Shown in pieces: positions 9,641 through 43,001 of a stretch of 64,000 bases of DNA. Positions within the stretch are counted from its first letter, which is position 1; every line of letters begins with the position of its first letter. Source of the stretch: Flavobacteriales bacterium (GTDB lineage Bacteria; Bacteroidota; Bacteroidia; CAIKAF01); the NCBI GenBank assembly GCA_022402535.1, contig JAKRSD010000023.1, forward strand, positions 30,741 to 94,740. Direction: 5' to 3'. The notes below the pieces were generated by a model. That model saw only the letters and a program-made list of their open reading frames with translations, was not told the origin of the DNA and searched no databases. The position numbers were made by a program, and so were the translations under genes.

Positions 9641-9655
9641 GGTTTTACAATTTTA

Positions 9656-11107
9656 TCAGGCGTCCAACTTTTCTTTCAGCAGGCGTGTGGTTACCTTGGG
9701 ATCGGCTTTGCCTCCTGAAATTTTCATGACTTCGCCCATAAACATGCCGATCAGTCCTACTTTGCCGCCTTTGTATTCGGCTACTTTTTCGGGAAATTTG
9801 GCAATCACCTGATCCACCCAGGCCGAAAGCGCACTTTCGTCGCTCTGCTGAATCAGATTTTTTTCTTCGGCAAGGACGGCTGCCGATTTTATCGGATTTT
9901 CCAGCAAGGCAGGGAAAATATTTTCCGAAGCCACCGTATTGCTCACTTTGCCCGATTTCACCAAAGCAATCAGTTCTCCTATTTTTTCGCCACCGAGCGG
10001 GAATTTTTCAATCGAAAGGCCTTTTTCATTCAGATATGAACGAATTTTACCCATCATCCAGTTGGCCGCCGCTTTATAATCTTCGGTGTGTTTAATAATC
10101 TGTAAAAAATAGGCTACCGTAGCCTTATCTTCCGTAATCCAGTAGGCATCATATTCGGGCAGTCCGTATTGTTTCACAAACTTTTGAAACAACGCTTCCG
10201 GAAGCTCTGGCAGTTCCGATTTAATTTTATCGATATAGGCTTCGCTCACAATAAGGGGCGGAAGATCGGGCTCAGGAAAATAGCGGTAATCGTGTGCCAT
10301 TTCTTTGCTACGCATCGAACGGGTTTCGCCCGAAACGGCATCGAAATTTCGCGTTTCCTGATAAATGGTTTCGCCAGTTTCAAGGCAGTTGCACTGACGC
10401 TGGAATTCAAATTCAATGGCCCGCTGCACATTGCGGATGGAGTTCATGTTTTTTACTTCCACTTTGGTGCCCAACTCCGTGGCGCCTTTCAGCCTTACGG
10501 AAATATTGGCATCGCAACGGAGCGAACCTTCTTCCATATTTCCGTCGCATACATCTAAGTAGCGTACCAGTTTGCGGATTTCGGTTAAGTATAAACCGGC
10601 CTCCTGAGAGGAAGAAATATCGGGACGGGAAACCATTTCCACCAGCGCCACACCGGCCCGGTTCAGGTCTATCAGCGAATCAAACGGATCTTGGTCGTGG
10701 ATGCTTTTTCCGGCATCTTCTTCTAAGTGTATCCGCTCCAAACGGATGTTTTTGGCATTGCCCGCATCATCTTTTATGGTAATGTATCCGTCGTAGCAGA
10801 TGGGTGTATCAAACTGCGAAATCTGATACCCTTTGGGAAGGTCGGCATAAAAATAATTTTTACGGGCAAAACGGTTCACTTCACGGATTTGGCAATTGGT
10901 GGCCAAACCCAGTTTCACGGCCAGTTCCACCACTTTTTCGTTCAGCTTGGGTAAGGTTCCCGGATGCCCCAGGGTGATCACGCTCACACAGGTATTGGGC
11001 GATGCGCCAAACTCGGTACTGTCTGCACTAAAGGCTTTGCTGAGTGTCTGCAGTTGCGCATGCACTTCCAGCCCGATTACGATTTCGTATTTGTCTTCAA
11101 ACTTCAT
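9656..11107 (-). CDS. gatB: Asp-tRNA(Asn)/Glu-tRNA(Gln) amidotransferase subunit B
   Basis: MKFEDKYEIVIGLEVHAQL N-terminus and full-length GatB similarity. Start trimmed to the MKFEDKY ATG (complement of 11105..11107). Confidence 0.9.
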   Translation of the reverse strand: MKFEDKYEIVIGLEVHAQLQTLSKAFSADSTEFGASPNTCVSVITLGHPGTLPKLNEKVVELAVKLGLATNCQIREVNRFARKNYFYADLPKGYQISQFDTPICYDGYITIKDDAGNAKNIRLERIHLEEDAGKSIHDQDPFDSLIDLNRAGVALVEMVSRPDISSSQEAGLYLTEIRKLVRYLDVCDGNMEEGSLRCDANISVRLKGATELGTKVEVKNMNSIRNVQRAIEFEFQRQCNCLETGETIYQETRNFDAVSGETRSMRSKEMAHDYRYFPEPDLPPLIVSEAYIDKIKSELPELPEALFQKFVKQYGLPEYDAYWITEDKATVAYFLQIIKHTEDYKAAANWMMGKIRSYLNEKGLSIEKFPLGGEKIGELIALVKSGKVSNTVASENIFPALLENPIKSAAVLAEEKNLIQQSDESALSAWVDQVIAKFPEKVAEYKGGKVGLIGMFMGEVMKISGGKADPKVTTRLLKEKLDA

Positions 11108-11289: not shown

Positions 11290-12504
11290 ATGGAACAAAA
11301 TTTCATTCTGCTGGCCATTCCCGTTTTCTTTTTATCCATCGGCATCGAACTTTGGTATTCGCGCAAAAAAGGGGCACGTTGGTATAACTTTGAAGACACC
11401 ATTACCAATCTGAATCTGGGTATCGGCAGTCAGGCAGTGGGGATAATGACCAAACTGTTGCTCGTGGGTTCGTACCATTGGGTATATGAAAACGGACGTC
11501 TGTTCGACTTACCCCAAAACCATTGGCTGGTGTGGATTGCAGCCCTGCTGCTTTTTGATTATATCTACTACTGGGCTCATCGTCTGGGACACGAGTGGAA
11601 TTATATGTGGGGTGCTCATATTGTGCATCATCAGAGTACGGAGTTTAATCTTTCGGTGGCGCTGCGCCAGAGTTGGTTTCATAACCTGATTTCGTTTTTT
11701 ATGTTTCTGCCCATGGCACTGTTGGGTTTTCATACTTATGTGCTGGTTGGCGTGGCGGCATTCACCACCTTATATCAATATTGGATTCACACACGGGCCA
11801 TCAAAAAACTGCCTTGGATTTTTGAATATGTGCTGAACACGCCTTCGCACCACAGGGTTCACCATGCCACCAATGCCCACTATATCGACAAAAATTATGC
11901 GGCCACTTTCATTATCTGGGACAGGCTGCACAACACCTTTATGGAAGAAAAAGAAGAACCCGTTTATGGCATCACCAAACCATTTGAATCGCTGAATCCG
12001 ATTTGGGCCAACCTGCATTACTACAAAGAAATGGCCGAAGGCATGAAACGCGAAAAAGGATTCTGGAACAAACTGGCTTTGTGTTTCCGCGGTCCCGAAT
12101 ACCTGGGGAAACTGCTGAATGAACCCATTCCTGAACCCAAACCTGCGGTGCAGACGGCACTTCCCGTGAAGTTATATGTGCTGATTCAGTTTGTGATTCT
12201 TTCTGCCGGACTGGTAAAATACCTCATGCATTTTGAAGAACTGAGCACGTTTTATAAAATCTCGGGCTTTGGACTTATTATCGCCACCACCCATATCTGC
12301 GCCGGATTGTTGGAAAACAAACGCGCTGCCATCGTAACCGAAGTACTGCGTATAACGGCAGCCTTGCTGGTGTTGAACTCGCTGTATTATTTTAATTATG
12401 CCGAGTGGTTTGCCATTATGCTTACCGGTTCCTTGGTCATTACGGCTATTTCGGCGGTTTGGCTGGCATTCAATGTGAAAACGATACGCGTAAACGCCCG
12501 TTAA
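11290..12504 (+). CDS. Sterol desaturase/fatty-acid hydroxylase-family membrane protein with extra C-terminal TM domain
   Basis: Histidine boxes HRLGHEW, HIVHHQS and HHRVHH in the FA_hydroxylase arrangement. About 130-aa hydrophobic C-terminal extension. Confidence 0.8.
   Translation: MEQNFILLAIPVFFLSIGIELWYSRKKGARWYNFEDTITNLNLGIGSQAVGIMTKLLLVGSYHWVYENGRLFDLPQNHWLVWIAALLLFDYIYYWAHRLGHEWNYMWGAHIVHHQSTEFNLSVALRQSWFHNLISFFMFLPMALLGFHTYVLVGVAAFTTLYQYWIHTRAIKKLPWIFEYVLNTPSHHRVHHATNAHYIDKNYAATFIIWDRLHNTFMEEKEEPVYGITKPFESLNPIWANLHYYKEMAEGMKREKGFWNKLALCFRGPEYLGKLLNEPIPEPKPAVQTALPVKLYVLIQFVILSAGLVKYLMHFEELSTFYKISGFGLIIATTHICAGLLENKRAAIVTEVLRITAALLVLNSLYYFNYAEWFAIMLTGSLVITAISAVWLAFNVKTIRVNAR
12448..12504 (+). 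repeat. Left copy of 57-bp direct repeat (3' end of desaturase gene plus stop)
   Basis: GCGGTTTGGCTGGCATTCAATGTGAAAACGATACGCGTAAACGCCCGTTAATTTT is repeated at 13289..13345 with one mismatch (G/A). Confidence 0.9.
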
Positions 12505-15914: not shown

Positions 15915-16976
15915 TTAATCCTTCAGCATGGAGAGCAGTTCATTTTCAAATTTCATTTTATCGCTGCCTAACTCGGGCTGTATGCCCACAATCAGCAGTT
16001 GTGACGATTCCAGCCATTCGGGCCATACTTCGCGGATGCGCACCACATCTTTTTCGGTGACGATCCAAAACCAATCTGAAAAGCGGTTCACAATATGTTC
16101 CAGCTCGCTGCGCGTATAGGCATGATGATCGGAAAACGGTTCGCGGGCCACACGATGAAACCGGGTTACCAACCAGTTGTATAAGGGAGTTTGATCGGCT
16201 ATTGCAGCCAGCAGCACGGCTTTATCCTGTTCAAAACGGGGCAAATATTCCGTTCCTTTTCCTGTGGTGAGCGGTAAATAGCGGTAGACAGAAAAATATA
16301 CGGAAGCCTCCGTATAGCGGCGGATTTTGGCCCGCATTGCGGCTTTGTCGGAATCGGTAAGCCCATCGGGGCATTTGGTAATTAGCACCATTCGGGCATG
16401 GCGTAACGCAGACAAAGGTTCGCGGGCATTTCCGGCAGGCAACAGCATCCAGGGATTATGCAGCGATTCCCAGGTAAGGAGCACGATGGCTACATGCGGT
16501 TTTAACTTCAGGTGCTGAAAGGCATCATCCAGCACCACATACCGGGTTTCGGGATTTGTTTTTAAAAGCTGTTGGATTCCCGCAGGTCTGTTTTCGCAGA
16601 CAAACACAGGTATTTCGGGGTATTTGTGTTTCACCATCAGGGGCTCATCCCCTGTTTGGGAAGCGGGCGCATCGTAGCGCACTTCCAAAAATCCTTTCGT
16701 TTTGCGTCCGTATCCGCGGCTGAGCCAGGCCGCTTTTTTGCCATGCTGCAATAAGATTTCGGCTATAAGCGCCGTGTGGGGTGTTTTTCCGGTTCCGCCG
16801 GTGGTTAAATTACCCACCACAATGGCCGGCACAGGTGATTTCCATCTTCTGCCGCTTTGGCCATACCAGATTCTGCGCAGTTTTACGATGCAGTAAAAAA
16901 GAGCCGAAAACGGAAAAAGCAGGCAACGCAAAAATTTCACCATGAAGACAAAGCTACGTTTTTCGTTTCCATTCAA
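15915..16976 (-). CDS. lpxK: Tetraacyldisaccharide 4'-kinase
   Basis: VVGNLTTGGTGKTP Walker-A motif and overall LpxK architecture. The start may be the internal ATG (MVKFL) 33 nt downstream. Confidence 0.85.
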   Translation of the reverse strand: MNGNEKRSFVFMVKFLRCLLFPFSALFYCIVKLRRIWYGQSGRRWKSPVPAIVVGNLTTGGTGKTPHTALIAEILLQHGKKAAWLSRGYGRKTKGFLEVRYDAPASQTGDEPLMVKHKYPEIPVFVCENRPAGIQQLLKTNPETRYVVLDDAFQHLKLKPHVAIVLLTWESLHNPWMLLPAGNAREPLSALRHARMVLITKCPDGLTDSDKAAMRAKIRRYTEASVYFSVYRYLPLTTGKGTEYLPRFEQDKAVLLAAIADQTPLYNWLVTRFHRVAREPFSDHHAYTRSELEHIVNRFSDWFWIVTEKDVVRIREVWPEWLESSQLLIVGIQPELGSDKMKFENELLSMLKD

Positions 16977-21527: not shown

Positions 21528-23810
21528 ATGGAACAATTTATTATTTATTTGCCGGCAGTATTGGCCGTGTTAGGTTTGGTTTACATGGCGATACAATCTG
21601 CCTGGGTAAACAAGCAAAACGCCGGGGATGCCAAAATGCAGTCCATTGCCAAAAGCATTCAGGAGGGCGCCATGGCATTTTTGAAAGCAGAGTACAAAAT
21701 CCTGTTGATTTTCGTAGTGATTGCTGCGATTGCTCTGTTTGCCGTATCTCAGGTAGTGGAAACCACACACTGGATTATTGTAGTGGCCTTTGTTTTTGGA
21801 GCCATCTTTTCCGCACTGGCCGGTAATATCGGTATGCGCATTGCCACCAAAGCCAACGTAAGAACCACAGAAGCCGCTAAAACCAGTCTTCCCCAGGCCT
21901 TGAAAGTTTCTTTCGGCGGAGGAACAGTAATGGGATTGGGCGTTGCCGGTCTTGCCGTACTCGGATTAAGCATCTTTTTCCTTTTATTTCTGAATATGTT
22001 TGTTGGAAAGGGCGGTTCCTTTTACAATGAAATGACCATTGCGCTGGAAGCCTTAGCCGGTTTCTCCCTGGGTGCCGAATCCATTGCCCTATTTGCCCGT
22101 GTGGGCGGCGGTATTTATACCAAAGCTGCAGACGTAGGCGCTGACCTCGTGGGTAAGGTAGAGGCGGGAATCCCTGAAGATGACCCCCGTAACCCCGCCA
22201 CCATTGCCGATAACGTGGGCGACAACGTGGGCGATGTGGCCGGTATGGGTGCAGACTTATTCGGTTCTTACGTGGCCACCGTATTGGCCTCCATGGTATT
22301 AGGAAACTATATTGTGAAAGATATGACCGATGTTTCGGGAACTCAATTCACGGATGCATTCAACGGAATGGGACCGATACTGCTTCCTATTCTTATTGCG
22401 GGGGTAGGTATTCTTGCCTCCATCATCGGTACGTTCTTTGTGAAAATTAAAAACAACGAAGCTAAAGAAGCCCAGGTTCAGCAGGCGCTGAACATCGGAA
22501 ACTACGTTTCATTGGCGCTTACCGTAGCGGCCTGTTGGTTTTTGATTCAATATATGTTGCCCGAAACCATGACCATGAAATTCTTTGGAGAAGGCTACAA
22601 ATCCGTATCCAACACCAATGTATTTTTCGCCACATTAGTAGGTTTGGCTGTGGGGTGGTTAATTTCAGCCTTCACGGAATATTATACCGCATTGGGTAAA
22701 AAACCGGTGTTGAACATCGTAAAAAACTCATCTACCGGAGCCGCCACCAATATCATCGCCGGTTTGTCAACTGGAATGATTTCTACTTTCTCTTCCGTAA
22801 TTCTTTTTGCTGCTGCCATCTGGGGTTCTTATGAACTGGCCGGATTTTATGGGGTAGCCATTGCCGCTTCTGCCATGATGGCCACCACGGCCATGCAGTT
22901 GGCTATCGATGCATTCGGACCTATTGCAGATAATGCCGGTGGTATCGCCGAAATGAGCGAATTGCCTAAAGAAGTGCGTCAAAGAACCGACGTATTAGAC
23001 TCTGTGGGTAACACTACGGCAGCCGTAGGTAAAGGATTTGCCATCGCTTCCGCGGCACTTACGGCTTTGGCCTTATTTGCAGCGTATGTAACATTCACCG
23101 GTATTGACGGAATCAACATTTTCAAAGCCGATGTATTGGCCGCCTTATTTATCGGGGGAATGATTCCGGTGGTATTTTCGGCCCTTGCCATGCAGTCGGT
23201 AGGAAAAGCCGCTATGGACATGGTGAACGAAGTACGTCGTCAGTTCCGCGAAATTCCTGGCATTATGGAAGGAACCGGCAAACCGGAGTACGGAAAATGT
23301 GTGGATATTTCTACCAAAGCCGCCCTTCGCGAAATGATGCTTCCGGGTGCCATTACCATTATTACACCCATCATCATCGGATTCATTATGGGTCCTGAAG
23401 CGTTGGGAGCTTACATGGCGGGTGTTGCCGTATCGGGTGTACTTTGGGCTATTTTCCAAAACAATGCCGGTGGTGCCTGGGATAATGCTAAAAAATCGTT
23501 TGAAGCAGGCGTAATGATCAACGGAGAAATGACCTATAAAGGTTCGGATGCCCACAAAGCAGCCGTAACGGGTGACACTGTGGGTGACCCATTCAAAGAT
23601 ACTTCCGGTCCGTCTATGAATATCCTCATTAAACTTACCTGTCTGGTAGGTCTGGTGATTGCACCGATTTTAGGGGAAATTTATACAGGCACTTCACACG
23701 AAACCGTTCAGGTGCAAAAAGAAGTGGTGATTACCGTAGATGAAAACGGAACGGAAACCCGCACCGAAACTTCATCGGTAGAGGGGGAAACCGAAACCAC
23801 TGCTGAATAA
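21528..23810 (+). CDS. hppA: Membrane-bound proton-translocating pyrophosphatase (H+-PPase)
   Basis: [20 protein letters not shown] and [21 protein letters not shown] signature motifs. 15-16 TM helices. Start at the ATG at 21528 (the ORF-track start is an upstream TTG). Unusual acidic Thr/Glu-rich C-terminal tail. Confidence 0.9.
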
Positions 23811-23830
23811 ATAAATAGATTTAAATATCT

Positions 23831-23866
23831 GAAAAGGCTGCCCAATCGGGTGGCCTTTTTTTGTGG
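23831..23866 (+). terminator. Rho-independent terminator (AGGCUGCCC-AAUC-GGGUGGCCU plus U-run), copy 1 of 3
   Basis: 9-bp stem containing two G-U wobble pairs, formable only in plus-strand RNA, followed by TTTTTTT. Directly after the hppA stop. Confidence 0.7.
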
Positions 23867-23999
23867 TTTTATTACGCGAAAAATCTGTAATTCATAGTAT
23901 TCCTATGGTTGTTTTTTCACAAACCATTTTCTGTACCATGCAATAAAAAATTTGCATACGTGAAATGTTTTTTTTTTTTTGTAAAAACATTAATGTCAT

Positions 24000-24230
24000 A
24001 TGAAAAAATTAATCATTATTTCCTTTACGGCTTTATTATCCTTATTCTCATTTCTATCTCCGATAAAATTAAATGCCGTACCCGGTGGTGCATGGACTTA
24101 TAATGTGATAGCCATAGACGGTTGCTACAAAAAATTTGCCTGCACCAAACCGGTAGCTCATCCCAACTGCGTTAAGGGACATGAAACAGGATGGGTTTGT
24201 ACCTGCGAACCGTGGAATTGTAACAAATAA
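24000..24230 (+). CDS. Small secreted cysteine-rich peptide (76-aa precursor; 6 Cys in about 50-aa mature region)
   Basis: Hydrophobic signal peptide (MKKLIIISFTALLSLFSFLSPIKLNA), then C-x5-C-x8-C-x9-C-x-C-x4-C. Preceded by a T13 homopolymer tract at 23967..23979. Confidence 0.5.
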   Translation: MKKLIIISFTALLSLFSFLSPIKLNAVPGGAWTYNVIAIDGCYKKFACTKPVAHPNCVKGHETGWVCTCEPWNCNK

Positions 24231-24254
24231 TATCTTTATCTAAAGCAATATCTT

Positions 24255-25391
24255 ATGAAAACAATCAAATGGGTTATACCCTCATTTTTGCTGCTTACTT
24301 TTGCCTGTACGCCTGAAAAAAAACATTCCACAGTAAAAGCCTATTTAAATCACCTTTCTACTGAAGATAAAAAGTTATCCATACAGGTGGTAAAAAATGA
24401 TCCTTTACCCTCATTTTCGCCTCAAACCGGCATGTATGTTCAAATGAGCAAAACGGCTCCTGGCAGCCTTGATTTTTACAATGGAGATGATTTTTCAGTC
24501 AAGAAGTTTGACTTATTAACCGGAAGAGAGTTGAATTACATTTCATTTTCGTTACAGGAAACCACCAAACAAAAATCAGGGTATTGCTTTAAGTCTGACG
24601 ACCAAACCTACATATGGCACACGGGCGAAAATAAGTTGTATCTTTTTAATCAGACAGGAGCCTTAATAAAAACGGAAACGCTTACGCTAAGCTTAAACGG
24701 TGAATCCTATTTTTTATCAGCATCTGCCAATTCCTCGGCACAATTTGATGCCCTTTCAAACACCGTAATTTTGCCGGTATATCCAACGGAAGGAGCTGAT
24801 GGTAAAACACTGTATGAAGTGCCCAGATTTGTGTCGTACAACCTCACGAACGGGAAAACCCAATTCATACCGATTAAGTTACCGAAAGAATACTCAACGG
24901 GTAAAACTTATGGCATGCTGGATGTTCCATACACGGCAATGGATAATGGCAGTTTTTATGCTATATTCCCCTTAGTGGCTACGGTATTTGAATATAACAT
25001 TGCTTCGGGTCAGTTAAATTCCGTTCCACTTTCATTACCTGTTTCACTTGCGTATCCATCAGCCGTTAAAGAAGGACGAGATTTTATGGATCAAAGTGAA
25101 AACGAATACCGCACTAACCGCATTACCGGATTTGCCGTTAATCAGGGTAAAATATACATTCAACAGACCGAAGGCTGGGACGAAACATTGGAGTCCAAAT
25201 TATTTACGGAAAACACCGTATTGCATGCTTTCAGCAGAAACGGCACATACCTCGGCGGAGGGCAATTCCCCGAAGATGTATTTGGCAGTCTGGGTGTTTT
25301 TTATCTGAAATACACCCAAAACAATGAATTGTATTTCACTTCGTTCGATAGCAAGAATTCTAAACGACTGATTGCGATAAAGACCAAATAA
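24255..25391 (+). CDS. Hypothetical lipoprotein (378 aa; beta-rich, possibly beta-propeller-like)
   Basis: Lipoprotein signal (MKTIKWVIPSFLLLTFAC). No catalytic motifs recognised. Followed by terminator copy 2. Confidence 0.6.
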   Translation: MKTIKWVIPSFLLLTFACTPEKKHSTVKAYLNHLSTEDKKLSIQVVKNDPLPSFSPQTGMYVQMSKTAPGSLDFYNGDDFSVKKFDLLTGRELNYISFSLQETTKQKSGYCFKSDDQTYIWHTGENKLYLFNQTGALIKTETLTLSLNGESYFLSASANSSAQFDALSNTVILPVYPTEGADGKTLYEVPRFVSYNLTNGKTQFIPIKLPKEYSTGKTYGMLDVPYTAMDNGSFYAIFPLVATVFEYNIASGQLNSVPLSLPVSLAYPSAVKEGRDFMDQSENEYRTNRITGFAVNQGKIYIQQTEGWDETLESKLFTENTVLHAFSRNGTYLGGGQFPEDVFGSLGVFYLKYTQNNELYFTSFDSKNSKRLIAIKTK

Positions 25392-25449
25392 GGTTTTAAT
25401 AACATTACTCAATTGAAAATTGTGTCGTAATCATACTCCATACATGACA

Positions 25450-25486
25450 TGTAAAAGGCTGCCAAAACGGGTGGCCTTTTTGTTTT
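25450..25486 (+). terminator. Rho-independent terminator, copy 2 of 3 (variant loop)
   Basis: AAAAGGCTGCCAAAACGGGTGGCCTTTTTGTTTTTT. Same stem as 23831..23866. Confidence 0.65.
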
Positions 25487-25597
25487 TTACATGACTAATA
25501 CTATCAAATATTTGACATTTTCCAGAGTTACAGACTGCTCGAAATCTATATTTAAAAATCGTAAATTCGCAGAAGTTTAATGAACTGAAACATCATT

Positions 25598-31759: not shown

Positions 31760-31848
31760 ACTAATTACTTATAAATAACAATCTCAAAAACTCAATTTTT
31801 ATGAGGTTTAAGAATGAAAAGTACAATTAAGTTGATTTAATCTAAAAC

Positions 31849-32667
31849 ATGCTAGTTTATAAAATAAGGGAGTTTGGGAAAAAATATGAAGATGCTTCAA
31901 CATCTGATGATACTTTATTCAAACAAATACTTTTTTCCGCAAATCCAAATAGTTTCGATGACAAACATGACAGATTCATCTTACCAGAAATCCCGAAGCT
32001 TGATAGTGAGGAGGAAATAGATATAATTTCAACCCAAATAACTGAAAAACATATTGGTTATAAAAATTTAAAGTCTTTTTTTGAGAATAAAAAAAAAATA
32101 AAGGAAAAATTAAGAGTCAGAGATATCTTTATAGATGAATTAAAATATTCAATTCGTCAAGAAAACAAGAACTATGGTATATGTTCATTTACAAAAAATT
32201 GGAATCAACTTAAAAATTGGATTGAATATGGAAATTCCAATAATGGATTTTCGATAGGATTTGAAACAGATGATTTAATAAAATTAGATTTATTTAGCTA
32301 TGCTGCTGATGTTGTATACTCTAATGAATATCCCCAAATACCACTATTAGATTATTTCCCATCTGATTCATCAAACCCCTTGGATTGGTTTACAAACGTT
32401 TTTAGCAAAACTTTTTTCATCAAATCTATTGACTGGAAACATGAAAACGAATGGAGAATTGTAAAATCATTTGTAGATAACCCTTTTAGGATTGAAAGAA
32501 AATTTAAATTCCCAGCAGGAATAATAAAAGAGATTGTTTTAGGATTTGAAACAAATTCAAAAAATACTGAAAAAGTTGTTTCATTTTTTTCGGGTAGTAG
32601 TATTCCTATATATAAAACTTATCTTCCAGAAGATAGTTATGAACTTAAAAGAATTAAAATAAACTGA
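31849..32667 (+). CDS. DUF2971-like hypothetical protein (AT-rich island)
   Basis: CSFTKNWNQLKNWIEYGNSNNGFSIGFE resembles the DUF2971 core (S.F...W..YA..H.G.c.eF). Markedly AT-rich codon usage compared with flanking genes. Confidence 0.45.
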   Translation: MLVYKIREFGKKYEDASTSDDTLFKQILFSANPNSFDDKHDRFILPEIPKLDSEEEIDIISTQITEKHIGYKNLKSFFENKKKIKEKLRVRDIFIDELKYSIRQENKNYGICSFTKNWNQLKNWIEYGNSNNGFSIGFETDDLIKLDLFSYAADVVYSNEYPQIPLLDYFPSDSSNPLDWFTNVFSKTFFIKSIDWKHENEWRIVKSFVDNPFRIERKFKFPAGIIKEIVLGFETNSKNTEKVVSFFSGSSIPIYKTYLPEDSYELKRIKIN

Positions 32668-32802
32668 AAAACAAGCTGTCCCAAGCTGTTCGGGATTTGT
32701 CTACTGCTGATCTAGATTTTGTCGATTGCTGTTTTATATTATAAGATTGTTGCATAGTACTTAACAATCGTATGAATTAGAATTGAGATTTATTTACCTT
32801 AA

Positions 32803-33207
32803 TCACTTTTCCTGATTAGGTACAATACTAACATTTAACAAATCAGGAATAAATTCAACCATTAAACTAACCAAAGAAGGGTTAATTGAAATAATTAAAT
32901 TATTATCCTCTTTCTCTTTATCAAAGCGATTAAGAGAAATTCCAAAAAAATCAAATTTATCACCATAGAATTGCACGTTTGAATCTCCGTTTTTTTTGTA
33001 ACATTCATCAAAAAAGTCTTTCAAAAATTTATTAGCTTGGTTTTGCTTTCCCAATCCTAAATTCATACAATATAATAGGTAAATAGCCATAGCTTTTGTT
33101 TTATTGCCATGATTGCTTCCAATAAACTTATCTAATTTTATTTCTGCCGTATGAAATTCTTTCTTTTTTATTAGTTCAACAATTTCATTAAAGTCCTCTT
33201 TTTTCAT
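32803..33207 (-). CDS. Hypothetical small cytoplasmic protein (AT-rich island; 134 aa)
   Basis: ORF 32803..33240 trimmed to MKKEDFNEIV. AT-rich. No signal peptide. Confidence 0.4.
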   Translation of the reverse strand: MKKEDFNEIVELIKKKEFHTAEIKLDKFIGSNHGNKTKAMAIYLLYCMNLGLGKQNQANKFLKDFFDECYKKNGDSNVQFYGDKFDFFGISLNRFDKEKEDNNLIISINPSLVSLMVEFIPDLLNVSIVPNQEK

Positions 33208-33294
33208 TTTGTTTTTTCTTTCAAATGTAAATAAAAACAAAAAATCAACGCTATTAAGAATTAATAAAAGCGTAGCGCAAATTGGCTTTCCATT

Positions 33295-33500
33295 ATCCCG
33301 TCCCTAAAGGGACTTCACCGTTTTATCATTCCGGTTTCTACCAATATGTCATTCCTACTGAATGAATGCTAAATCCATTCAAACCCAAACGATTCTACCC
33401 AATAACATGGCGCACATAATGCCCTGTCCCGTCAGGGACAAAATACGGTAGAAACCATTTCCATTCCCAAAACCAAGTGCCTTTAGGTACGCGATGTGTG
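33295..33500 (+). mobile_element. MITE-like repeat copy 1 (about 205 bp, imperfect terminal inverted repeats, three internal hairpins)
   Basis: Starts CCGTCCCTAAAGGGAC and ends GTGCCTTTAGGTACGC (imperfect TIR). Internal palindromes CATTCCTACTGAATG and TGTCCCGTCAGGGACA. Closely matches 38183..38386. Confidence 0.7.
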
Positions 33501-34418
33501 CAATCTTATCATGTGATTTAATATCTCAACCCTATTGGAACTTCTCCAGTAGCATTTTTGATTTTTCGATACGGCTTATATTAGCCCCGATAAATTAATC
33601 CGTTGCCCGATAAACAAGGGAATACAGCATGGACGTTTGGAAGAAAGTAGAATCCAATTTTTAATAGTATTTGATGTGCCGTTTGTAATCGGCATGATGT
33701 GATTCGTGAATTACCTGATTTCGGGCGGGTAAGGAAAGATTGCCGAATTTTAGTACTGAATTGCGCGTTTGACCGAAAAATTCTCAAGGCTATTCCAAAC
33801 AAAAAACAAAGCATTGAATAAAATGAACGCGATTTTTTATAGAGCTTTCATGTTCGATAAATTTTTAAAGACAAAAAACTATGTAAGGTCGAATTCCTAA
33901 TTTAATGTTTAGCTAAAAAACAGGCCTTATCAATATCTTTTTTATCGAAAGAGATGCAACCTTCGTAAGTAATTATCCAAAAAAGTTTATATTGCTCAAG
34001 CCTTACACTATTAACAAATCCGTTAAAATTCAGTTCCGATGGGGTGAACCGAGCTCCGGCTTTATCGACTTCCACTGTGAAAATCGGGTTTATCATTCGA
34101 GATTTATCAAACGGAAAATGAAATTCTTCAAAAAAGAACGCTTTGATTTCCAATTTCTTTTCCAGAAATTAAAATAATAATCCCCAATTTTTTTCAAAGT
34201 TTCTGAAAATCCTATTGCCTTTCCTGTTCCTCCTTATAGGGCTAACCATTCAACATTTTGTTGGAATTTCATTAGTTAATTATACTGCAGTTTTTGATTA
34301 ATCAAACATAAAAACCAGCATCATAGACCAAAAGCAGAGAATAGACAAAATGAATATTCGAAAATGTTTAAAAAATAAAAATCATCAGATTGTATTCTTA
34401 TGATTTATTTACAGGTTC

Positions 34419-34946
34419 TCATTTCACATTACTCACCGCCGCATTCAGCTTATCTGCAAGCTCCTGAGCTTTCTGAAAATCATCGTATTTAAACGTAAAA
34501 ACCACGTAAGTCCTGTTATTATCCTCCATAAGCTCTCCTCTATCCGTCAATATTTTGTAATTAATATGACTGTCATTGCCCGTCCACTTTAAATACGCTT
34601 CTCCATCTGAATAATTTTTAACTACCTTAAAATTTGGCGCTACAGGTTTAGATTTATCTAAGGGTATCTGAATCATTTCGTATTCCGTAACCTGATTATT
34701 ATATTGATTTACGCGGTACGCATATACCAAAAATTCTTTTTTGACTTTATCTTCATAATATCCGATTTTACAACCATATTGCCTTACGGTATACCAAATA
34801 CCATTGGCAGGAATGTAATAATTATATTTAGGTTTAGCCACCGGAGCGGGCTTTTCCACTTCCTCCTGAACAGGTTGTTCAAACAGTTGTGCTCTTAATC
34901 CGCCTAGCGTAAAGAGCGCGATTAACAATAAACCGATTTTTTTCAT
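34419..34946 (-). CDS. Secreted small protein, paralog family A (175 aa)
   Basis: Signal peptide (MKKIGLLLIALFTLGGLRAQ). Shares a FLVYAYRV...IQIPL..KPVAP core and a C-terminal A.ELA.KLNA helix with 35650..36120 and 34982..35653. Confidence 0.6.
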   Translation of the reverse strand: MKKIGLLLIALFTLGGLRAQLFEQPVQEEVEKPAPVAKPKYNYYIPANGIWYTVRQYGCKIGYYEDKVKKEFLVYAYRVNQYNNQVTEYEMIQIPLDKSKPVAPNFKVVKNYSDGEAYLKWTGNDSHINYKILTDRGELMEDNNRTYVVFTFKYDDFQKAQELADKLNAAVSNVK

Positions 34947-34981
34947 GGTAAAATTTGACTATGTTTTATAAATTTTAGGCA

Positions 34982-35653
34982 CTATTTGGTCAATCCGAGT
35001 CGCATATTCAATTCGTTTGCAAGCCATTTTGCCGCATCCGGTTGAAGCGGAAGACTTACCAGCTCTTTAAAATATCCATTGGTGCTGCTTATGTTGTCAT
35101 AGTATTTTTTTGTTCTGCTCTCTTCAACCCAATTTTTATCATAGGCTTTCCAGGGCATCTCACTCAAATCAGCTTTGGGGATAACATTTACTTGAAAAAC
35201 TTTACCGCATTTGGTATGGTAGGGATCCGTATATATGTTTGCATACTCTTTTTCCCAGGGTTTGCCGTGATGGTAATACTCTTTCGTGATGAATTTAGGA
35301 ATGACACCGGAGCGTTTACAATCTTCAAAATCATCAGCAAACAGAAGGTATAATGTTAAATATTCAGGATCACCCATTTCATTTGATGCGGTAATTTTAT
35401 ATCGCACTACATATAACGAACAGGCTTTCGTTTTCTCATCCCACTTGTAATACAGCACATCAGCGTTTTCTTCGAAAAATTTTGATAAAAGCGCGCCTTT
35501 CCAATCGGTTAACTGCACAGCACCTGCAGGAATTTCCACTCCGTCAAAATTTGTTATAGCTTGTTTTGTTTTCGTTGGCACAAAATTTTGGCCGCTTACA
35601 TATACTGAAATCAAACTGAGTATGACGAAAGTAATTGCTTTATACCTTTTCAT
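34982..35653 (-). CDS. Secreted small protein, paralog family A (223 aa)
   Basis: Signal peptide (MKRYKAITFVILSLISVYVSGQ). LYVVRYKI core and an AKWLANELNMRLG C-terminus related to the two neighbours. Confidence 0.6.
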   Translation of the reverse strand: MKRYKAITFVILSLISVYVSGQNFVPTKTKQAITNFDGVEIPAGAVQLTDWKGALLSKFFEENADVLYYKWDEKTKACSLYVVRYKITASNEMGDPEYLTLYLLFADDFEDCKRSGVIPKFITKEYYHHGKPWEKEYANIYTDPYHTKCGKVFQVNVIPKADLSEMPWKAYDKNWVEESRTKKYYDNISSTNGYFKELVSLPLQPDAAKWLANELNMRLGLTK

Positions 35654-36120
35654 TTTTTGAATTTTGCATTAAGTTCATTTTTTAACCACTCGGCTTTTTC
35701 ATGCGAGCTGATGATTACATCCAAATCGCTTGAATTGTCACATTCCAGTGCGGTAGCCTCTTTATCTGCTTCACACTCCACGATGAAGTCATTTTCCTTT
35801 GCATCGGTCCATTGTACCCGTGATCCGTCAGACTCTTTAAGTGCCGTAAATGCAGGCGCCAGCGGTTTGATTTTGACCACCGGAAGGGTAATTATTTCCG
35901 CTTCCTGAAATGTGTTGTCTTCGTCATCATAGCGAACCAGATAAATCTTGGCTTCTGCTTTGGTGTTGTCGAAATAGTAAAATGCCTTTTCCCACTGATC
36001 TATTCCCTGTCCAAGCTCCACATGGCCGGCAGGAATGGTAAAGGTTTTGAATTTAAGCTCTTGCGCACGGGTAATCAGTGCAAATAACAAGGCTGGAATA
36101 ATTAAAACTATTTTTTTCAT
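35650..36120 (-). CDS. Secreted small protein, paralog family A (156 aa)
   Basis: Trimmed to the MKKIVLIIPALLFALITRAQ signal peptide. IYLVRYDD...ITLPVVKIKPLAPAF core and an AEWLKNELNAKFKK C-terminus. Confidence 0.6.
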   Translation of the reverse strand: MKKIVLIIPALLFALITRAQELKFKTFTIPAGHVELGQGIDQWEKAFYYFDNTKAEAKIYLVRYDDEDNTFQEAEIITLPVVKIKPLAPAFTALKESDGSRVQWTDAKENDFIVECEADKEATALECDNSSDLDVIISSHEKAEWLKNELNAKFKK

Positions 36121-36166
36121 TTTTTTTAATTTTATAGAGTAATACAGAGTATTGCTATTATTCAAA

Positions 36167-36736
36167 CTATTTGATTCCAAACACTTCTTTAAACTTATTT
36201 TCAGCAAACTGAATCCAAATATCATCGCCAATACCTTTATCAGAATACCAGATGAACCTTTTTGGAGTAAACGAATCTATTACACTATAATCTGTTTTAC
36301 CCCCGTTTACCATTTCCTTCTTAGTCTCGGAAATTCCATCTTTCCAATAGTTCAGCATGAATCCATCCTCCGGCAGCTCCACTTTGATGAAGGACCGCTT
36401 ACCCGGATAATACTATTCTAAACGGGTGCTTTTGAAACGCTCACTTTTAGCCAAAGCATCCGAAATTTTAATTTCATAACCGCTACCCAGTTCAGCAGAG
36501 TTCATTATAAAAAATACATGATTATTTGCCGCATCTTTCCAATACCACAATGAATTTTTATGGGGCGTATTGGAAAAACTGGAAATTCCCATTAATTCGC
36601 CTGTTGCATATTTAGCGCCCTCTGCGTTGTGCGGTATGATTAATTTGCCGTATTTGTATATCGGCGTCTGGGCAATTGCTGTTACACAAACACTCAGGGT
36701 TAGTAGTATTAAAATAAGCGTTTGTCTGTTTTTCAT
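36167..36736 (-). pseudogene. Nonsense-interrupted paralog of 36849..37412 (family B): in-frame TAG at complement of 36413..36415
   Basis: ORF 36413..36736 (signal peptide plus N-terminal half) and ORF 36167..36382 (C-terminal half) are in the same frame. The intervening read-through gives FKSTRLE*YYPGKRSFIKVELPEDGFML, against FKSTKIEIDKYSKAIEVILPENGFIL in the intact paralog. Confidence 0.7.
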
Positions 36737-36848
36737 AAAATAGTTGATGTTATGTTTGGTAAAAAACCGATTCCTGAATAGAATCCTTTACAATAGCCGA
36801 AATAAAATTCTTTCCTAAAATGAATTGACAGCGGAATGCTTAGAATTT

Positions 36849-37412
36849 CTAATTCAACCCAAAAACCGCTTTTACCTTTTTCTCAACAAACTGAAGCCAT
36901 TCCATTTCTTTTCCCTCTTTGTATTCCGTATTCCAGTAAAATTTATTGGGAGTAGAGGTACCTCGATGATTCAGGCCATAATCTATAAAGTTAATTTTGC
37001 TTTGCGCTTCCGAATATCCTGACTCATAAAATTGGGTGAGAATGAATCCATTTTCTGGTAAGATAACTTCAATGGCTTTTGAATATTTATCAATTTCAAT
37101 TTTAGTGGATTTAAATGGAGCACTTTTTGCCAATGCGTCTGAAATTTTTGCCTGATATGCGCTTCCGTTAGCTGAACTTAAAACACAAAATATATGATTT
37201 CCCGAAGCATCTTTCCAATACCAGAATGTGTTTCTCAAAGGCTTGTTTTCGTCGCTCGAAAGACCCAACAATTTACCATTGGCATCTCGCGGCCCTTCGG
37301 CATTATGTGGTATAGTCAGTTGCCCTTTCTGGAAAATGGGTGTTTGCGCTAAAACTAATTTACCTGTAAATAAAGTAAAACAGGAAACAGCTATAATCAT
37401 TAGTTTATTCAT
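36849..37412 (-). CDS. Secreted small protein, paralog family B (187 aa)
   Basis: Signal peptide (MNKLMIIAVSCFTLFTGKLVLAQ). QTPI..G.L.IPHNAEG...WYWKDA..NH.F core shared with 36413..36736. Confidence 0.6.
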   Translation of the reverse strand: MNKLMIIAVSCFTLFTGKLVLAQTPIFQKGQLTIPHNAEGPRDANGKLLGLSSDENKPLRNTFWYWKDASGNHIFCVLSSANGSAYQAKISDALAKSAPFKSTKIEIDKYSKAIEVILPENGFILTQFYESGYSEAQSKINFIDYGLNHRGTSTPNKFYWNTEYKEGKEMEWLQFVEKKVKAVFGLN

Positions 37413-37548
37413 GATAATGTGGATTTTTTACATTGATTAATCAATCGGTTGACTAACTTTTTTATTATGTTTATATATTATGAAAAATACAATTTTTATA
37501 AGAGCAGGAATTAACTATTAACCCCCGCTCTTTAGGTATTAACACAGT

Positions 37549-37827
37549 TTACGGTAAATTAATTTCAGGTTCGATTTGAAGAAATGATCCCATGATTATT
37601 TGTTTTCCAATGCATTGAGTTTGGAAAGTAAGACCTGCTTCGCGGTTTTGAGAAACAGAATTCCCAGCGTTTATTAATCCAGAGGCGACAATCTCTTTTC
37701 CATTTAAATATCTACAATTTAACGTCTTGAATTTGTCGTTTTTTATTGGAAAAGCTACTATCTGTGCCTTCAGGGTGATGCACAAACCTAATGCTGGAAG
37801 TAGAGTAATTATAATAACTCTTTTCAT
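37549..37827 (-). CDS. Small secreted hypothetical protein (92 aa)
   Basis: ORF trimmed to MKRVIIITLLPALGLCITLKAQ signal peptide. AT-rich island. Confidence 0.4.
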   Translation of the reverse strand: MKRVIIITLLPALGLCITLKAQIVAFPIKNDKFKTLNCRYLNGKEIVASGLINAGNSVSQNREAGLTFQTQCIGKQIIMGSFLQIEPEINLP

Positions 37828-37962
37828 GGTTATATTGAAATGACAATGCAAACTTACATTTTGAAAAAAAGGATTAGGATTGTGTTTGCATGAACAGAAG
37901 AGTTTATTTCACGAAAAGAGCAAAAATCTTCTTAAACAATTAAATCTGGTTTTATTAAATTA

Positions 37963-38150
37963 AAGCTTACAAAGCTTGTATTTGAGGTCGGAGCGGGTTG
38001 ATTGTCAGAAACTGGTATCACAATTTAGAGTTCGTATGTATTGCATACAAGTAATTCAGGTTTGGCTACCGTTTCTTCGAGATACTCGCCAAATAAATCG
38101 GAATGTTTTAAACCACTTTTTACCTGTTGATTATGGTCGCTCCTTATTTT
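37963..38150 (-). pseudogene. Fragment homologous to the 3' part of gene 39667..39987
   Basis: GCTTGTATTTGAGGTCGGAGCGGGTTGATTG...TCGCCAAATAAATCGGAATG...ATCGCTCC aligns with 39700..39880 (GCCTGTATTTGTCTGCGAAGCGGGTTAATTG...CTCCAAATAAATCGGAATG...ATCGCTCC). Confidence 0.5.
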
Positions 38151-38182
38151 AGACCTAAACTTATCATTACGTTGTCAATATC

Positions 38183-38386
38183 TCATCCCTAAAGGGACTT
38201 CCCCATTTTTTTATTCCGGTTTCTACCTATATGTCATTCCTACGGAATGAATGCGAAACCCTTCAAATCAAAACGATTGTACTACATCAAACTACGTAGC
38301 CACATGCCCTGTCCCGTCAGGGACAACCTATCGGTAGAAAATGCCACTTCCTCCAAATCAAGTGCCTTTAGGTACGCAATGGGTGT
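38183..38386 (+). mobile_element. MITE-like repeat copy 2
   Basis: Near-identical to 33295..33500 with small indels. Direct orientation. Confidence 0.7.
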
Positions 38387-38410
38387 AAATCATATTATGT
38401 GTCTTCAATA

Positions 38411-38476
38411 TCCCGTCCCTAAAGGGATTACTATTCCAGGTTCTACCATAGCTCATTCCTACGGAATGAGAGAGAG
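38411..38476 (+). mobile_element. Partial third MITE-like copy (5' end only)
   Basis: ATCCCGTCCCTAAAGGGATTACTATTCCAGGTTCTACCATAGCTCATTCCTACGGAATGAGAGAG matches the first about 65 bp of the element. Confidence 0.55.
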
Positions 38477-38627
38477 ACATATACCCAAGCCAAACCCATC
38501 TACCGGAATATTTAGTATTAATTCTTCCATCATACCGGAATATTTCATAGTTTTGAAACATGTAACTTCGTGTTGGTCATCAGCCCTTTATGATATTCAA
38601 TCCTTTTACTCAATAACAATTCTTTCC

Positions 38628-39666: not shown

Positions 39667-39987
39667 TCACAAATAATTTTGTTCAATTACTGCTTTTAGC
39701 GCCTGTATTTGTCTGCGAAGCGGGTTAATTGCAGCAAATTTATAGCCCATTATGGCGGCGGTATGTTTAGATTCCAATAATTCGGGCTTGGGTTCTATTA
39801 CTTCCCGATATTCTCCAAATAAATCGGAATGACGTTTAAAGTGTTGGAGCAGTTTGTTATAATCGCTCCACAGAAACTTCACATCGGCGGCACTGACTCC
39901 TTGAATTAGGGTTTCAGAAGGTATCTGACTTTTTTCAACGGAATTTTCCAATTCATGTAACATGCCTTTCAGCCGCTCTATATCCAT
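39667..39987 (-). CDS. Hypothetical protein (106 aa)
   Basis: Clean ORF. Its 3' portion is duplicated as a fragment at 37963..38150. Confidence 0.5.
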   Translation of the reverse strand: MDIERLKGMLHELENSVEKSQIPSETLIQGVSAADVKFLWSDYNKLLQHFKRHSDLFGEYREVIEPKPELLESKHTAAIMGYKFAAINPLRRQIQALKAVIEQNYL

Positions 39988-40966: not shown

Positions 40967-41578
40967 CTATTCCATGGTATAAAACGCCCGAAAAGCCGGA
41001 TTTCGGTTTTCCGCTGTACGGATATGGACAAATGAAAGTGTAAATGTTTTTTTGTACTCACCGGTGCCTACTTCAAACACAACTAGCGTTTTATCCGGCC
41101 TGCATTCCACATATCCGTCTTGGGCTGAGCAATTCATTTTTTGTGCTTTGGTAAACTTCTCCCATGTTTTCGCCGCTTGTATTTCTTTAGATTCAATCGT
41201 AATTTCAAAAACAGGCTTATATTTTGTATCATGGGGTTCAAGCCAACGTAAGAATACCGACCCGTTCCATGTATCAAAATTTTCAGGAATTTGATAGTAC
41301 GTATACTCACGTATTGATTGGAAATAACCCATTCCTGCAAAAAGATAAGGCTCCGTATATTCATCATAATCCGGAATATCAAATGCATCTTCAAACAACC
41401 CATTATACCCCCTAACTTTTAAAAAATAGTTGTCCATCGATTCCAGTTGACTGTTGTTAATCATAACTATCAACTCCTTATTCAGCAGCTCATCACATGA
41501 AACCGGCTTCAAAGTCTGAGAAAACATACTTTGCATTGCCAATGTAATCAGCAGCAACATAAATCCAGATTTCTTCAT
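40967..41578 (-). CDS. Hypothetical secreted protein (203 aa)
   Basis: Signal peptide MKKSGFMLLLITLAMQSMFSQ. Confidence 0.5.
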   Translation of the reverse strand: MKKSGFMLLLITLAMQSMFSQTLKPVSCDELLNKELIVMINNSQLESMDNYFLKVRGYNGLFEDAFDIPDYDEYTEPYLFAGMGYFQSIREYTYYQIPENFDTWNGSVFLRWLEPHDTKYKPVFEITIESKEIQAAKTWEKFTKAQKMNCSAQDGYVECRPDKTLVVFEVGTGEYKKTFTLSFVHIRTAENRNPAFRAFYTME

Positions 41579-41626: not shown

Positions 41627-42043
41627 TCACTCTTCAATGATAATACCCGCTGAGTTTATAAAAGTATCCGCCTCGTTATACATGTCTATATAATACTTAC
41701 CGGGTTTGGAAAAAGTCTGACTGAAACTCACCCAATTCCAGTTTCTGTCTCCTACTTTTACCGTATAACTTTCCACAAGTCCGCCTGCCTCTTCATACAC
41801 TTCTACAATGAGTTCAGAGAGCATGAGAGGTTGCTCTTGCTCAAGGAGTACCTTTAACTCAACCGGTTTACCGTTGAGCGAAAAGGTTTCTGCCACTTCC
41901 TCCAAAAGTCCTTCGGAGTTTAATTTCTTTCCAAAATAAATTTGGGAATACTCATAATAATAGGTGTCATAAATAGACTCAGATTGCGACTGGGCGGATA
42001 AAACAATTCCACAGACCAATACAAAAAGTAATGTGAAGCGTTT
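41627..42043 (-). CDS. Hypothetical secreted protein (138 aa)
   Basis: Trimmed to the MKRFTLLFVLVCGIVLSAQSQ signal peptide. Confidence 0.5.
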   Translation of the reverse strand, partial: KRFTLLFVLVCGIVLSAQSQSESIYDTYYYEYSQIYFGKKLNSEGLLEEVAETFSLNGKPVELKVLLEQEQPLMLSELIVEVYEEAGGLVESYTVKVGDRNWNWVSFSQTFSKPGKYYIDMYNEADTFINSAGIIIEE

Positions 42044-42191
42044 CATAATAAAAGGATTAAGTTTAGTCAAAGGTAAAGTAATGTATTGGGAATAATCATC
42101 ATGTTGTGAAAGATTTCATGCAAAATAATGCATATGAATCATACTCGTGTGCGTTATCAAAACTATCTTTGGATAAAATGAACATCTTGCC

Positions 42192-43001
42192 ATGAAAAAA
42201 GCATTCCTAATTCTTTTCGCAATCGTAACAGCCTTTACCGCCAAAGCACAATCGGAAGAAAATACCGCCAAATCGGTTATTATGGCCCTAAAACACAAGT
42301 CGTTTTATCAACTGGAATTTATCTTAGCTGAACCTGAGAACAAAAAAGCCATCGAAACCAAGTTTAATCTTCTGCTCAGCAATGCCTCTAAAAGCGGAAT
42401 CAATGTAGAAAAGCTGGCTTTCGACTTTCATCAGTCACATAGAATTGAAGGCACCAATATGCTTGTACTGCTTATCGTGTACAAAACTGAAGACGGCACT
42501 AACTGGGATGATATTATTTTGCTGCTCGATAAAAAGAGTTACAGCATTATGGACATCGGTCAACCTGAAAAAACATTGAAAAAAGATGCGGCTTCCAGAG
42601 GTAAAAACATGAAAAATATCGCGGGTCTGATAAAGGTTTTTTATCCCAATATTCCCATAAAGGAGGATGCGCTGAATGCCGCAAAAAACATCATCAATAT
42701 TGTGAATACAGGCAAACCTGAAGATTTAATTCCGTTTATGGTGTACACCGGATCCGAAGATCCCACCCGTAAACACATGTCGCAACCGCTCAATCCCAAA
42801 ATTGAAAAAGACCAAAAGACAGCCAAATACATGTTTAACAAACTGAGCGGACTGTTTTCAGGCCCTGAAAGTATTTATGCGGAGGGGTTTAAGTCTAATC
42901 CCGAAAATAACACCTGCAACTTCCGTATCGTATGCAGTTCCACCAAAAACACAGAATACATGGCCTTTGTGTTGCTTAACGGTAAATACCTCTTATACTA
43001 A
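42192..43001 (+). CDS. Hypothetical secreted protein (269 aa)
   Basis: Signal peptide MKKAFLILFAIVTAFTAKAQ. Confidence 0.5.
   Translation: MKKAFLILFAIVTAFTAKAQSEENTAKSVIMALKHKSFYQLEFILAEPENKKAIETKFNLLLSNASKSGINVEKLAFDFHQSHRIEGTNMLVLLIVYKTEDGTNWDDIILLLDKKSYSIMDIGQPEKTLKKDAASRGKNMKNIAGLIKVFYPNIPIKEDALNAAKNIINIVNTGKPEDLIPFMVYTGSEDPTRKHMSQPLNPKIEKDQKTAKYMFNKLSGLFSGPESIYAEGFKSNPENNTCNFRIVCSSTKNTEYMAFVLLNGKYLLY

Follow-up and report, generated by a model that had tools for sequence, protein, structure and literature searches.

Directly downstream of fadB, in the 64-kb stretch of DNA that was analysed at its full length (here called the window), lies an AT-rich segment that runs from 31760 to 38480. 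It begins with a gene for a DUF2971 protein and a small ORFan, continues with a hairpin-rich repeat, a gene relic, a short insert and a cassette of six genes, and ends with a second relic and a second copy of the repeat, next to a MopE gene. The six cassette genes are read from one strand in the order S-B1-B2-A3-A2-A1, to which A4 is added in one lineage, and encode small putative exported proteins of a predicted beta-rich nature, five of which belong to two paralogous families, A and B. On balance, the 6.7-kb stretch is best explained as a composite, in which a strain-variable islet stands beside a lineage-restricted operon that would have been relocated as a block.

The mean GC content, taken in 500-bp windows across the 64 kb, is 0.338 within 31.75-38 kb and 0.438 (sd 0.042) outside. 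The profile is not uniform, and the first-pass annotation of this DNA, a reading of the letters that had described an AT-rich block with shifted codon usage, holds in this respect: GC at third codon positions (GC3) ranges from 0.28 to 0.42 among the cassette genes, compared with 0.49-0.57 for thiolase, fadB and PrsW. The content falls from about 0.50 in thiolase and fadB (0.507 for fadB) to 0.25-0.29 right past the fadB stop codon (31759), and no value in the 64 kb is lower than the 0.254 at 31751. After this initial minimum, values of 0.32-0.41 persist up to about 38.2 kb. The stretch has two composition classes, 0.27 in the left islet (0.268 for 31760-33290) and 0.37 in the cassette (0.366).

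Arrangements of the cassette in related contigs

Searches with the cassette proteins recovered 18 related contigs, all of which carry the cassette in the same order and on one strand; the conserved order is seen in L003-L010 and L091-L098, contigs which come from independent samples. Species representatives of GTDB, which were searched with fadB, gave best matches of 56-58% identity, too distant for synteny. Separate orthologues exist for B1 and for every A paralogue, in at least three lineages each, and the cassette copies of the relatives are equally low in GC. Because it is present in all related contigs recovered, with the same low GC, the cassette is core to a narrow uncultured Bacteroidota clade and not a recent import; one deposited metagenome-assembled genome (MAG) has the NCBI label ‘Flavobacteriales bacterium’. 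The accessory island of the first-pass annotation stands for the left 1.5 kb and for the position of the cassette, and falls for the content and order of the cassette, which relatives keep.

The surroundings of the cassette are of four types. In type I (L091, L093, L095-L098, L003-L005), the order is Peptidase_C1, a gene for a 106-aa protein, S to A1, genes for proteins of 271 and 140 aa, and Band_7, which is followed in L093 by a further gene of the 106-aa type (106aa'), MopE, a 410-bp spacer, DUF2971 and fadB. The intact 106-aa gene adjoins S in L091, L093 and L096-L098, one or two extra genes separate the two in L003-L005 and L095, and an open reading frame (ORF) of 36 aa replaces the 140-aa gene in L003-L005. 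In type II (L008, L009), S to A1 lie beyond DeoC and are followed by A4. Type III (L006, L007) has fadB, a miniature inverted-repeat transposable element (MITE), a beta-lactamase gene, S to A1 and another MITE. Type IV is the window itself, whose layout has so far been met solely in the source sample.

The lone close-strain contig that reaches fadB, L093, has DUF2971 abutting MopE and the cassette about 4 kb away, and positions 32720-38500 of the window (5.8 kb) replace its 410-bp DUF2971-MopE spacer. The comparison that the first-pass annotation had proposed for this junction thus gives a clear answer, an uninterrupted DUF2971-MopE junction in L093 and a cassette that is present elsewhere. 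The former neighbours of the operon are the 106-aa gene on the S side, as in type I, and A4 behind A1, as in type II. In this strain, by this comparison, a 4.6-kb block with the operon has been relocated into the DUF2971-MopE spacer. The ends of the block are stumps of these neighbours, A4 abutting repeat copy 1 and the 106-aa gene about 35 nt from copy 2, and the relocation could have come about by recombination or transposition involving the repeat copies. A mis-assembly induced by the repeats was considered and rejected, because the copies are just ~79% identical and the junctions hold unique sequence. The cassette sits in a hyper-plastic chromosomal zone which is rich in exported proteins.

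Features of the AT-rich stretch (positions in the window; MITE-like repeats are given as direct copies).
Feature	Positions	Strand	Remarks
Gene for DUF2971 protein, 272 aa	31849..32667	+	Matches Pfam PF11185 and PADLOC PDC-S31
ORFan, 134 aa (145 aa from TTG at 33240)	32803..33207	-	In convergent orientation to the DUF2971 gene
MITE-like hairpin-rich repeat, copy 1	33291..33545		Core 33291-33503, then degenerate start of a second unit
A4 relic, fourth family-A paralogue	33546..33846	-	Truncated at the edge of repeat copy 1
Insert of ~420 bp relative to L009	33847..34262		Splits the 5' part of the A4 relic; 83-aa ORF at 33902-34153 (-)
A1, family A, 175 aa	34419..34946	-	Putative exported; last intact gene of the operon
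A2, family A, 223 aa	34982..35653	-	Putative exported; big internal insertion, conserved Cys pair
A3, family A, 156 aa	35650..36120	-	Putative exported
B2, family B	36167..36736	-	Inactivated by one TAG
B1, family B, 187 aa	36849..37412	-	Putative exported
S, 92 aa	37549..37827	-	Putative exported; first gene of the operon; divergent allele
Relic of a paralogue of the 106-aa gene	37925..38141	-	C-terminal two thirds, frameshifted
MITE-like repeat, copy 2	38176..38478		38176-38388 (similarity to 38430) and partial third unit 38406-38478

Protein families of the cassette

The paralogy within families A and B, which the first-pass annotation had proposed, is borne out. The alignment of A1 with A3 spans 113 aa at 33% identity (E 3e-10). 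The similarity of A2 to A3 is weak, and A2 is connected to family A by a fourth paralogue, P0020 (235 aa, from a relative), which aligns to the family with an hhalign probability of 97.7%; A2 also shares the family-A motifs IPAG, YY-D, Y-VRY, P-F, W and A-WLANELN. Compared at full length, B1 and B2 share 45% identity, with 58% in the N-terminal part (E 8e-36) and 35% in the C-terminal part. The nonsense-interrupted B copy of the earlier reading is confirmed as B2, in which a single in-frame TAG at 36415-36413 takes the place of a TCG (Ser) codon of the relatives L095 and L009. Among the 14 members of the 90% cluster of B2, 13 have the intact gene (189 aa), and the identical truncation is annotated in the NCBI MAG protein MCG9911649.1, a 71-aa fragment. 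Since the other 13 members are intact, and the ratio of nonsynonymous to synonymous divergence (dN/dS) of B2 is 0.10-0.16, its inactivation is very recent.

Compared with the S proteins of relatives, which have 97 aa, that of the window is 48-55% identical and lacks their C-terminal Cys. Three of the four relatives' S proteins compared are near-identical to each other, despite a 14% difference in fadB between the lineages, and the S of the window may be a deeply divergent allele, or else a copy in decay. The alignment of S with family B is confined to the leader.

The cassette genes have dN/dS values of 0.06-0.6, which indicate purifying selection that is relaxed relative to the neighbours: thiolase, fadB, PrsW, DeoC, Band_7 and the 106-aa gene have values of 0.03-0.09. 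Orthologues of A1 are 61-98% identical (dN/dS 0.06-0.33) and those of A2 are 77-98% identical (0.17-0.33). The synonymous divergence (dS) between the window and L093 is strongly uneven along the cassette, being 0.03 in A3, 0.05 in A2, 0.15 in A1, 0.19 in B1, 0.44 in B2 and saturated in S. The paralogue content varies also, as A2 and B2 are missing in L003-L005 and A4 is present solely in L009 and L010. In L006, the lone B gene (9391-9954, P0018) has a B1-like body and its last 13 residues are those of B2 (FAEIKFKEVFGIK), a chimera that points to unequal crossover between tandem paralogues. The uneven dS, the B1/B2 fusion, the losses of paralogues and the divergent S would fit a role at an interface with competitors, phages or the environment.

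Profile searches find 13 clusters of family A and 6 of family B among 5.8 billion proteins. An exhaustive HMMER search of 1.84 billion representatives returned seven, which add the fourth paralogue and one spurious match; the latter, P0021 (663 aa, with FN3-like repeats), is a weak match to the A profile (E 6e-5) and was rejected. The A, B and S proteins have no match in Pfam (E <= 1), NCBIfam or PADLOC, PDB sequence profile searches with the cassette proteins gave noise alone, and a plasmid search with A3 found no homologue. As far as these searches reach, families A and B are without detectable relatives beyond the clade and apparently previously undescribed, which agrees with the function that the first-pass annotation had called possibly undescribed.

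All six cassette proteins, whose signal peptides were read directly from the sequences, begin with basic residues (K/R) followed by a hydrophobic leader that ends in AQ, as is usual for signal-peptidase I sites in Bacteroidota. None of the six has a lipobox Cys at the proper position, and A2 and A3 have conserved Cys pairs. The model of A3 (pLDDT, the predicted local distance difference test, 79) has a pleckstrin homology (PH)-like fold. The predicted fold of family A has seven or eight strands and a C-terminal helix, and the predicted model shows the seven-stranded antiparallel beta-sandwich closed by a C-terminal alpha-helix that characterizes PH-like proteins. Family A is therefore predicted to be PH-like, and family B may be so too. 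In family A, most of the invariant positions hold aromatic or structural residues, among which no catalytic constellation can be recognised. Most likely, the products would be non-catalytic binding modules of the periplasm or envelope, with one partner or ligand per paralogue; their binding may inhibit toxins or enzymes that come in from outside, or may serve the envelope in another way.

Bacterial PH-like families, which make up the Pfam clan PH with bPH_1 to bPH_6, were reportedly described by Xu et al. in the Journal of Molecular Biology in 2010. Examples in the clan are PF03703 and PF08000, and the described bacterial families are cytoplasmic or membrane-anchored. Unlike these, the cassette proteins have Sec-type leaders and conserved Cys pairs, and they have no sequence match to any Pfam PH-clan model. 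A secreted PH-like fold, if the prediction is right, would be unusual among bacterial PH-like proteins.

A TAnnTTTG box (TAAGTTTG) is located at 37856-37849, 22 nt upstream of the S start codon, and the one further box of this type on the same strand, as far as the A1 stop, falls within the coding sequence of S. The A3 stop overlaps the A2 start (ATGA). The six genes would form one transcription unit that starts from the box upstream of S. A scan for sigma-70 promoters and terminators stayed at chance level, and the sigma-70 type is unsuited to Bacteroidota.

Repeats, relics and the DUF2971 islet

The direct repeats that the first-pass annotation called MITE-like are present at both sides of the block: 33291-33545 is a direct repeat of 38176-38430, with 79% identity over 255 bp in a gapped alignment, and the cores 33291-33503 and 38176-38388 keep a constant gap-free spacing of 4885 bp. 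The unit is 213 bp long and has four short palindromes. Its terminal inverted repeat (GTCCCTAAAGGGAC and GTGCCTTTAGGTAC) is complementary at 12 of 14 positions, and the inner one (GGTTTCTACC and GGTAGAAACC) is exact over 10 nt. Because the outer and the inner pairs are mutually complementary, the unit folds into a long hairpin, and its fold as single-stranded DNA has a z of -3.5. The hairpin modules are kept between the copies at 22-23 of 25 positions, compared with 7-15 of 25 in the spacers, and the hairpin motifs are found nowhere else in the 64 kb, where none is expected by chance.

A search of Rfam with 31-40 kb returned nothing, so that the repeats do not correspond to any known RNA. Neither an exact 23-mer nor a gapped pattern of three modules had a match in the metagenome contigs of the Joint Genome Institute (JGI), the repeat was not found in the loci of relatives that were searched, and no target-site duplication is identifiable at the copies. 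By its sequence, the element resembles a MITE or a cluster of repetitive extragenic palindromic (REP) sequences. It is similar to MITE, REP and REPIN elements in its length (~210 bp), its non-coding nature, its terminal and internal inverted repeats and its stable single-strand fold. As with junction repeats, its copies stand at both junctions of the putatively relocated block, and an unrelated MITE brackets the cassette in L006. It differs from them in that the known copies, two and a third, are confined to this locus, and in that the window has no cognate transposase.

Other repeats occur near the cassette in relatives. L006 has three copies of another, 320-bp MITE family within 11 kb (5874-6189, 11759-12072 and 16146-16447), which is also present in L007, has clear 17-bp terminal inverted repeats (CCCAAAATTGTCATCAG) and is unrelated to the repeat of the window; two direct copies bracket the cassette together with the beta-lactamase gene, which has a type IX secretion system (T9SS) tail. 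The 410-bp spacer of L093 (15266-15675) is a GC-rich cluster of perfect hairpins (CAACCCCTCCGGGGTTG, AGCCCTCCGGGCT, CCACCGGATTTTAATGCGGTGG and others), likewise unrelated in sequence to the repeat of the window. L095, from a close strain, has a 148-aa Y1_Tnp gene of the IS200/RAYT type (16240-16686) about 6 kb from its cassette, a possible mobiliser of hairpin repeats. These MITEs, the hairpin spacer and the Y1 transposase indicate that repeat-rich junctions are general in this zone. Close to the MopE gene, on its upstream side, the window has a stretch with repeated TTCCGGTA-like motifs (38477-38565); this stretch recurs with 78-85% identity in L003, L091, L097 and L098, by Band_7 or AAA_14 genes, and lies in tandem in L093 (15229-15300).

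What the first-pass annotation took for some 900 bp of degraded non-coding sequence resolves into repeat copy 1, the A4 relic and the insert with its ORF. The A4 relic is 76% identical at the nucleotide level to L009 11921-12217, and in tblastn it aligns to residues 64-158 of the 235 of P0020 with 55% identity, two in-frame stops and a frameshift. The nucleotide alignment of the window with L009 has a gap at 33841-34263, where L009 holds 48 bp. The insert has no match in the related loci that were searched, and its 83-aa ORF has no family match. The duplicated gene fragment noticed earlier at the right edge is also real; it is what remains of a paralogue of the 106-aa gene that lies at 39667-39987, and repeat copy 2 begins past its 5' end.

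On the left, 31760-33290 is a separate strain-variable, very AT-rich islet located directly downstream of fadB. The DUF2971 assignment of the earlier reading is correct, with a score over the gathering threshold of PF11185 (E 2e-8). The protein also matches PADLOC PDC-S31 (PDLC04994; E 2.9e-34), residues 3-266 aligning to positions 19-268 of the 273 of the profile. The PDC families are candidate defence families by definition. Judged from these matches, the 272-aa protein is a candidate single-gene anti-phage defence of the PDC-S31 type. DUF2971 is the sole recognised domain of Aristaios, a lactococcal antiphage protein (PMC11381338). The gene resembles PDC-S31 and Aristaios in encoding a single DUF2971 protein (~270-316 aa) with a full-length PDC-S31 match, and in being very AT-rich, strain-variable and recently spread; the likeness is limited to this gene, and that to Aristaios rests on the shared domain.

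The DUF2971 protein is 99% identical in amino acids to its copy in L093 (15728-16546), with a dS of 0.007, while the adjoining fadB is 86% identical with a dS of 1.1, and the gene is not downstream of fadB in L003 and L006. The gene therefore behaves as a recently spread accessory gene, which looks like spread of a defence candidate by recombination at the 3' end of fadB. The ORFan has no signal peptide, and a box (TACATTTG) lies at 33229-33222, upstream of its ATG. Its lone match among the 5.8 billion proteins is itself, and scans of family libraries gave no match above noise.

No integrase, transposase or toxin was found among the window ORFs scanned against Pfam, in line with the earlier reading, and the gene tables of the relatives, like the scanned ORFs, have no annotated toxin, Rhs, VgrG, Hcp or PAAR protein, type VI secretion system (T6SS) or recombinase. 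Beyond the MopE gene, two small orphan proteins with Sec-type leaders (40967-41578 and 41627-42070) have no family match; they were considered as relatives of family A and rejected, since hhalign shows them to be unrelated. They are followed by a 269-aa orphan (42192-43001) without family match, which has paralogues on both flanks of the cassette in L003. Elsewhere in the window, a second GC dip (~0.34-0.39) at 23750-25500 coincides with a 378-aa ORF (24255-25391) without Pfam match, and a 1027-aa ORF (4764-7847) has no Pfam match either.

Possible functions and the history of the locus

The first-pass annotation had seen the tandem secreted proteins as characteristic of orphan immunity or effector-like islands, a view for which no positive evidence was obtained. 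In its specific form, each A or B paralogue would neutralise a different envelope-targeting toxin and be kept without the toxins. The tandem exported paralogues, of which members have been gained, lost, fused or turned into pseudogenes, are what such an array would show, as are proteins which evolve faster than their flanks, mosaic alleles between close strains in which S and B2 are replaced, the low GC, the plastic zone beside a candidate phage-defence gene and, if the model holds, a small non-catalytic binding fold. Nevertheless, the proteins match no immunity, defence or other family in Pfam, NCBIfam, PADLOC or PDB profiles, and no toxin, secretion-system gene or recombinase is annotated in the gene tables or among the scanned ORFs. 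The families are confined to one narrow clade without lateral spread, order and orthology are kept across lineages with a 14% fadB difference, and gene-wide dN/dS is far under 1. An orphan immunity array is doubtful on this evidence.

Orphan immunity-gene arrays of this kind are the acquired interbacterial defence (AID) clusters of Bacteroidales, which Ross et al. reportedly described in Nature in 2019. The cassette is like them in its tandem small putative exported proteins with paralogues and pseudogenes, and in its AT-rich, variable neighbourhood without an adjacent toxin. It differs from them as it has no homology to known immunity proteins, no recombinase and no mobile backbone, and as its families are confined to one narrow clade, whose lineages keep the same orthologues in the same order. 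The searches gave no homologue linked to a toxin, and all 19 homologue clusters come from one clade.

Alternatively, the six proteins could be subunits of one lineage-specific envelope assembly, a hetero-oligomer of the periplasm or associated with the outer membrane, with a housekeeping role in this clade. The fixed order, the single upstream promoter-like box, the A3/A2 overlap, the purifying selection, the near-invariance of S in three of the four relatives compared and the presence of the cassette in every related contig recovered agree with this role. However, the members are dispensable (L003 is without A2 and B2, L006 has B1 and B2 in fused form, the B2 of the window has a nonsense codon and A4 is lost in most strains), and co-adapted subunits do not usually have their alleles replaced between close strains, as S and B2 have, so that such an assembly is rather unlikely. 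A role as protease inhibitors, considered for the Peptidase_C1 gene near the cassette in the common arrangement, was set aside, as three of the four arrangement types do not keep this linkage and the proteins have no chagasin-like motif.

The horizontal transfer of all of 31760-38480 together, as a single recently acquired foreign island, is very improbable: the GC dip that begins exactly at the fadB stop codon, the direct repeats near the edges and the apparently recent transfer of the DUF2971 gene speak for it, but all relatives found have the cassette with an equally high AT content, the stretch falls into two composition classes, the repeats bracket the cassette block alone and leave the DUF2971 islet outside, L093 has DUF2971 without an adjoining cassette, and there is no integrase, tRNA or att-like site, with outer-edge repeat pairs that are weak and at chance level.

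Several points weigh against parts of the favoured explanation, a composite of a strain-variable islet and a relocated operon of binding proteins. On the left, the window begins to differ from L093 at 32720, which is 570 bp outside repeat copy 1, and the direction of the change, to the window from an L093-like layout, is deduced from the stumps. There may be a second copy of the cassette elsewhere in the source genome. The repeat is known at two sites and from none of the JGI metagenomes, which makes its mobility and its causal role in the relocation presumptive. As to the proteins and their expression, the relatedness of families A and B has an hhalign probability of 17%, which is driven by the leaders, the model of B1 has no significant match to PDB in Foldseek, and promoters of other types could lie between the genes, in gaps of 136, 112 and 46 nt.

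On the present evidence, the operon remains a lineage-specific cluster of hypothetical exported proteins, and such clusters are common in uncultured Bacteroidota. A bolder possibility, which we consider quite unlikely, is that the S-B-A operon represents a new periplasmic anti-toxin or anti-enzyme class built on a secreted PH-like fold, a diversifying array that can be moved between hairpin repeats. If its proteins were inhibitors of incoming toxins or enzymes, they would bring a new fold to interbacterial defence, and the periplasmic anti-toxin role, if true, would add a new immunity fold family together with repeat-mediated shuffling of the array. The locus is a clean natural case of a relocated operon, with the stumps of its old neighbours each lying by a repeat copy. 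An AT-rich ‘island’ that is seen in a single genome may thus be composite, an accessory defence candidate beside a clade-conserved operon that has moved.

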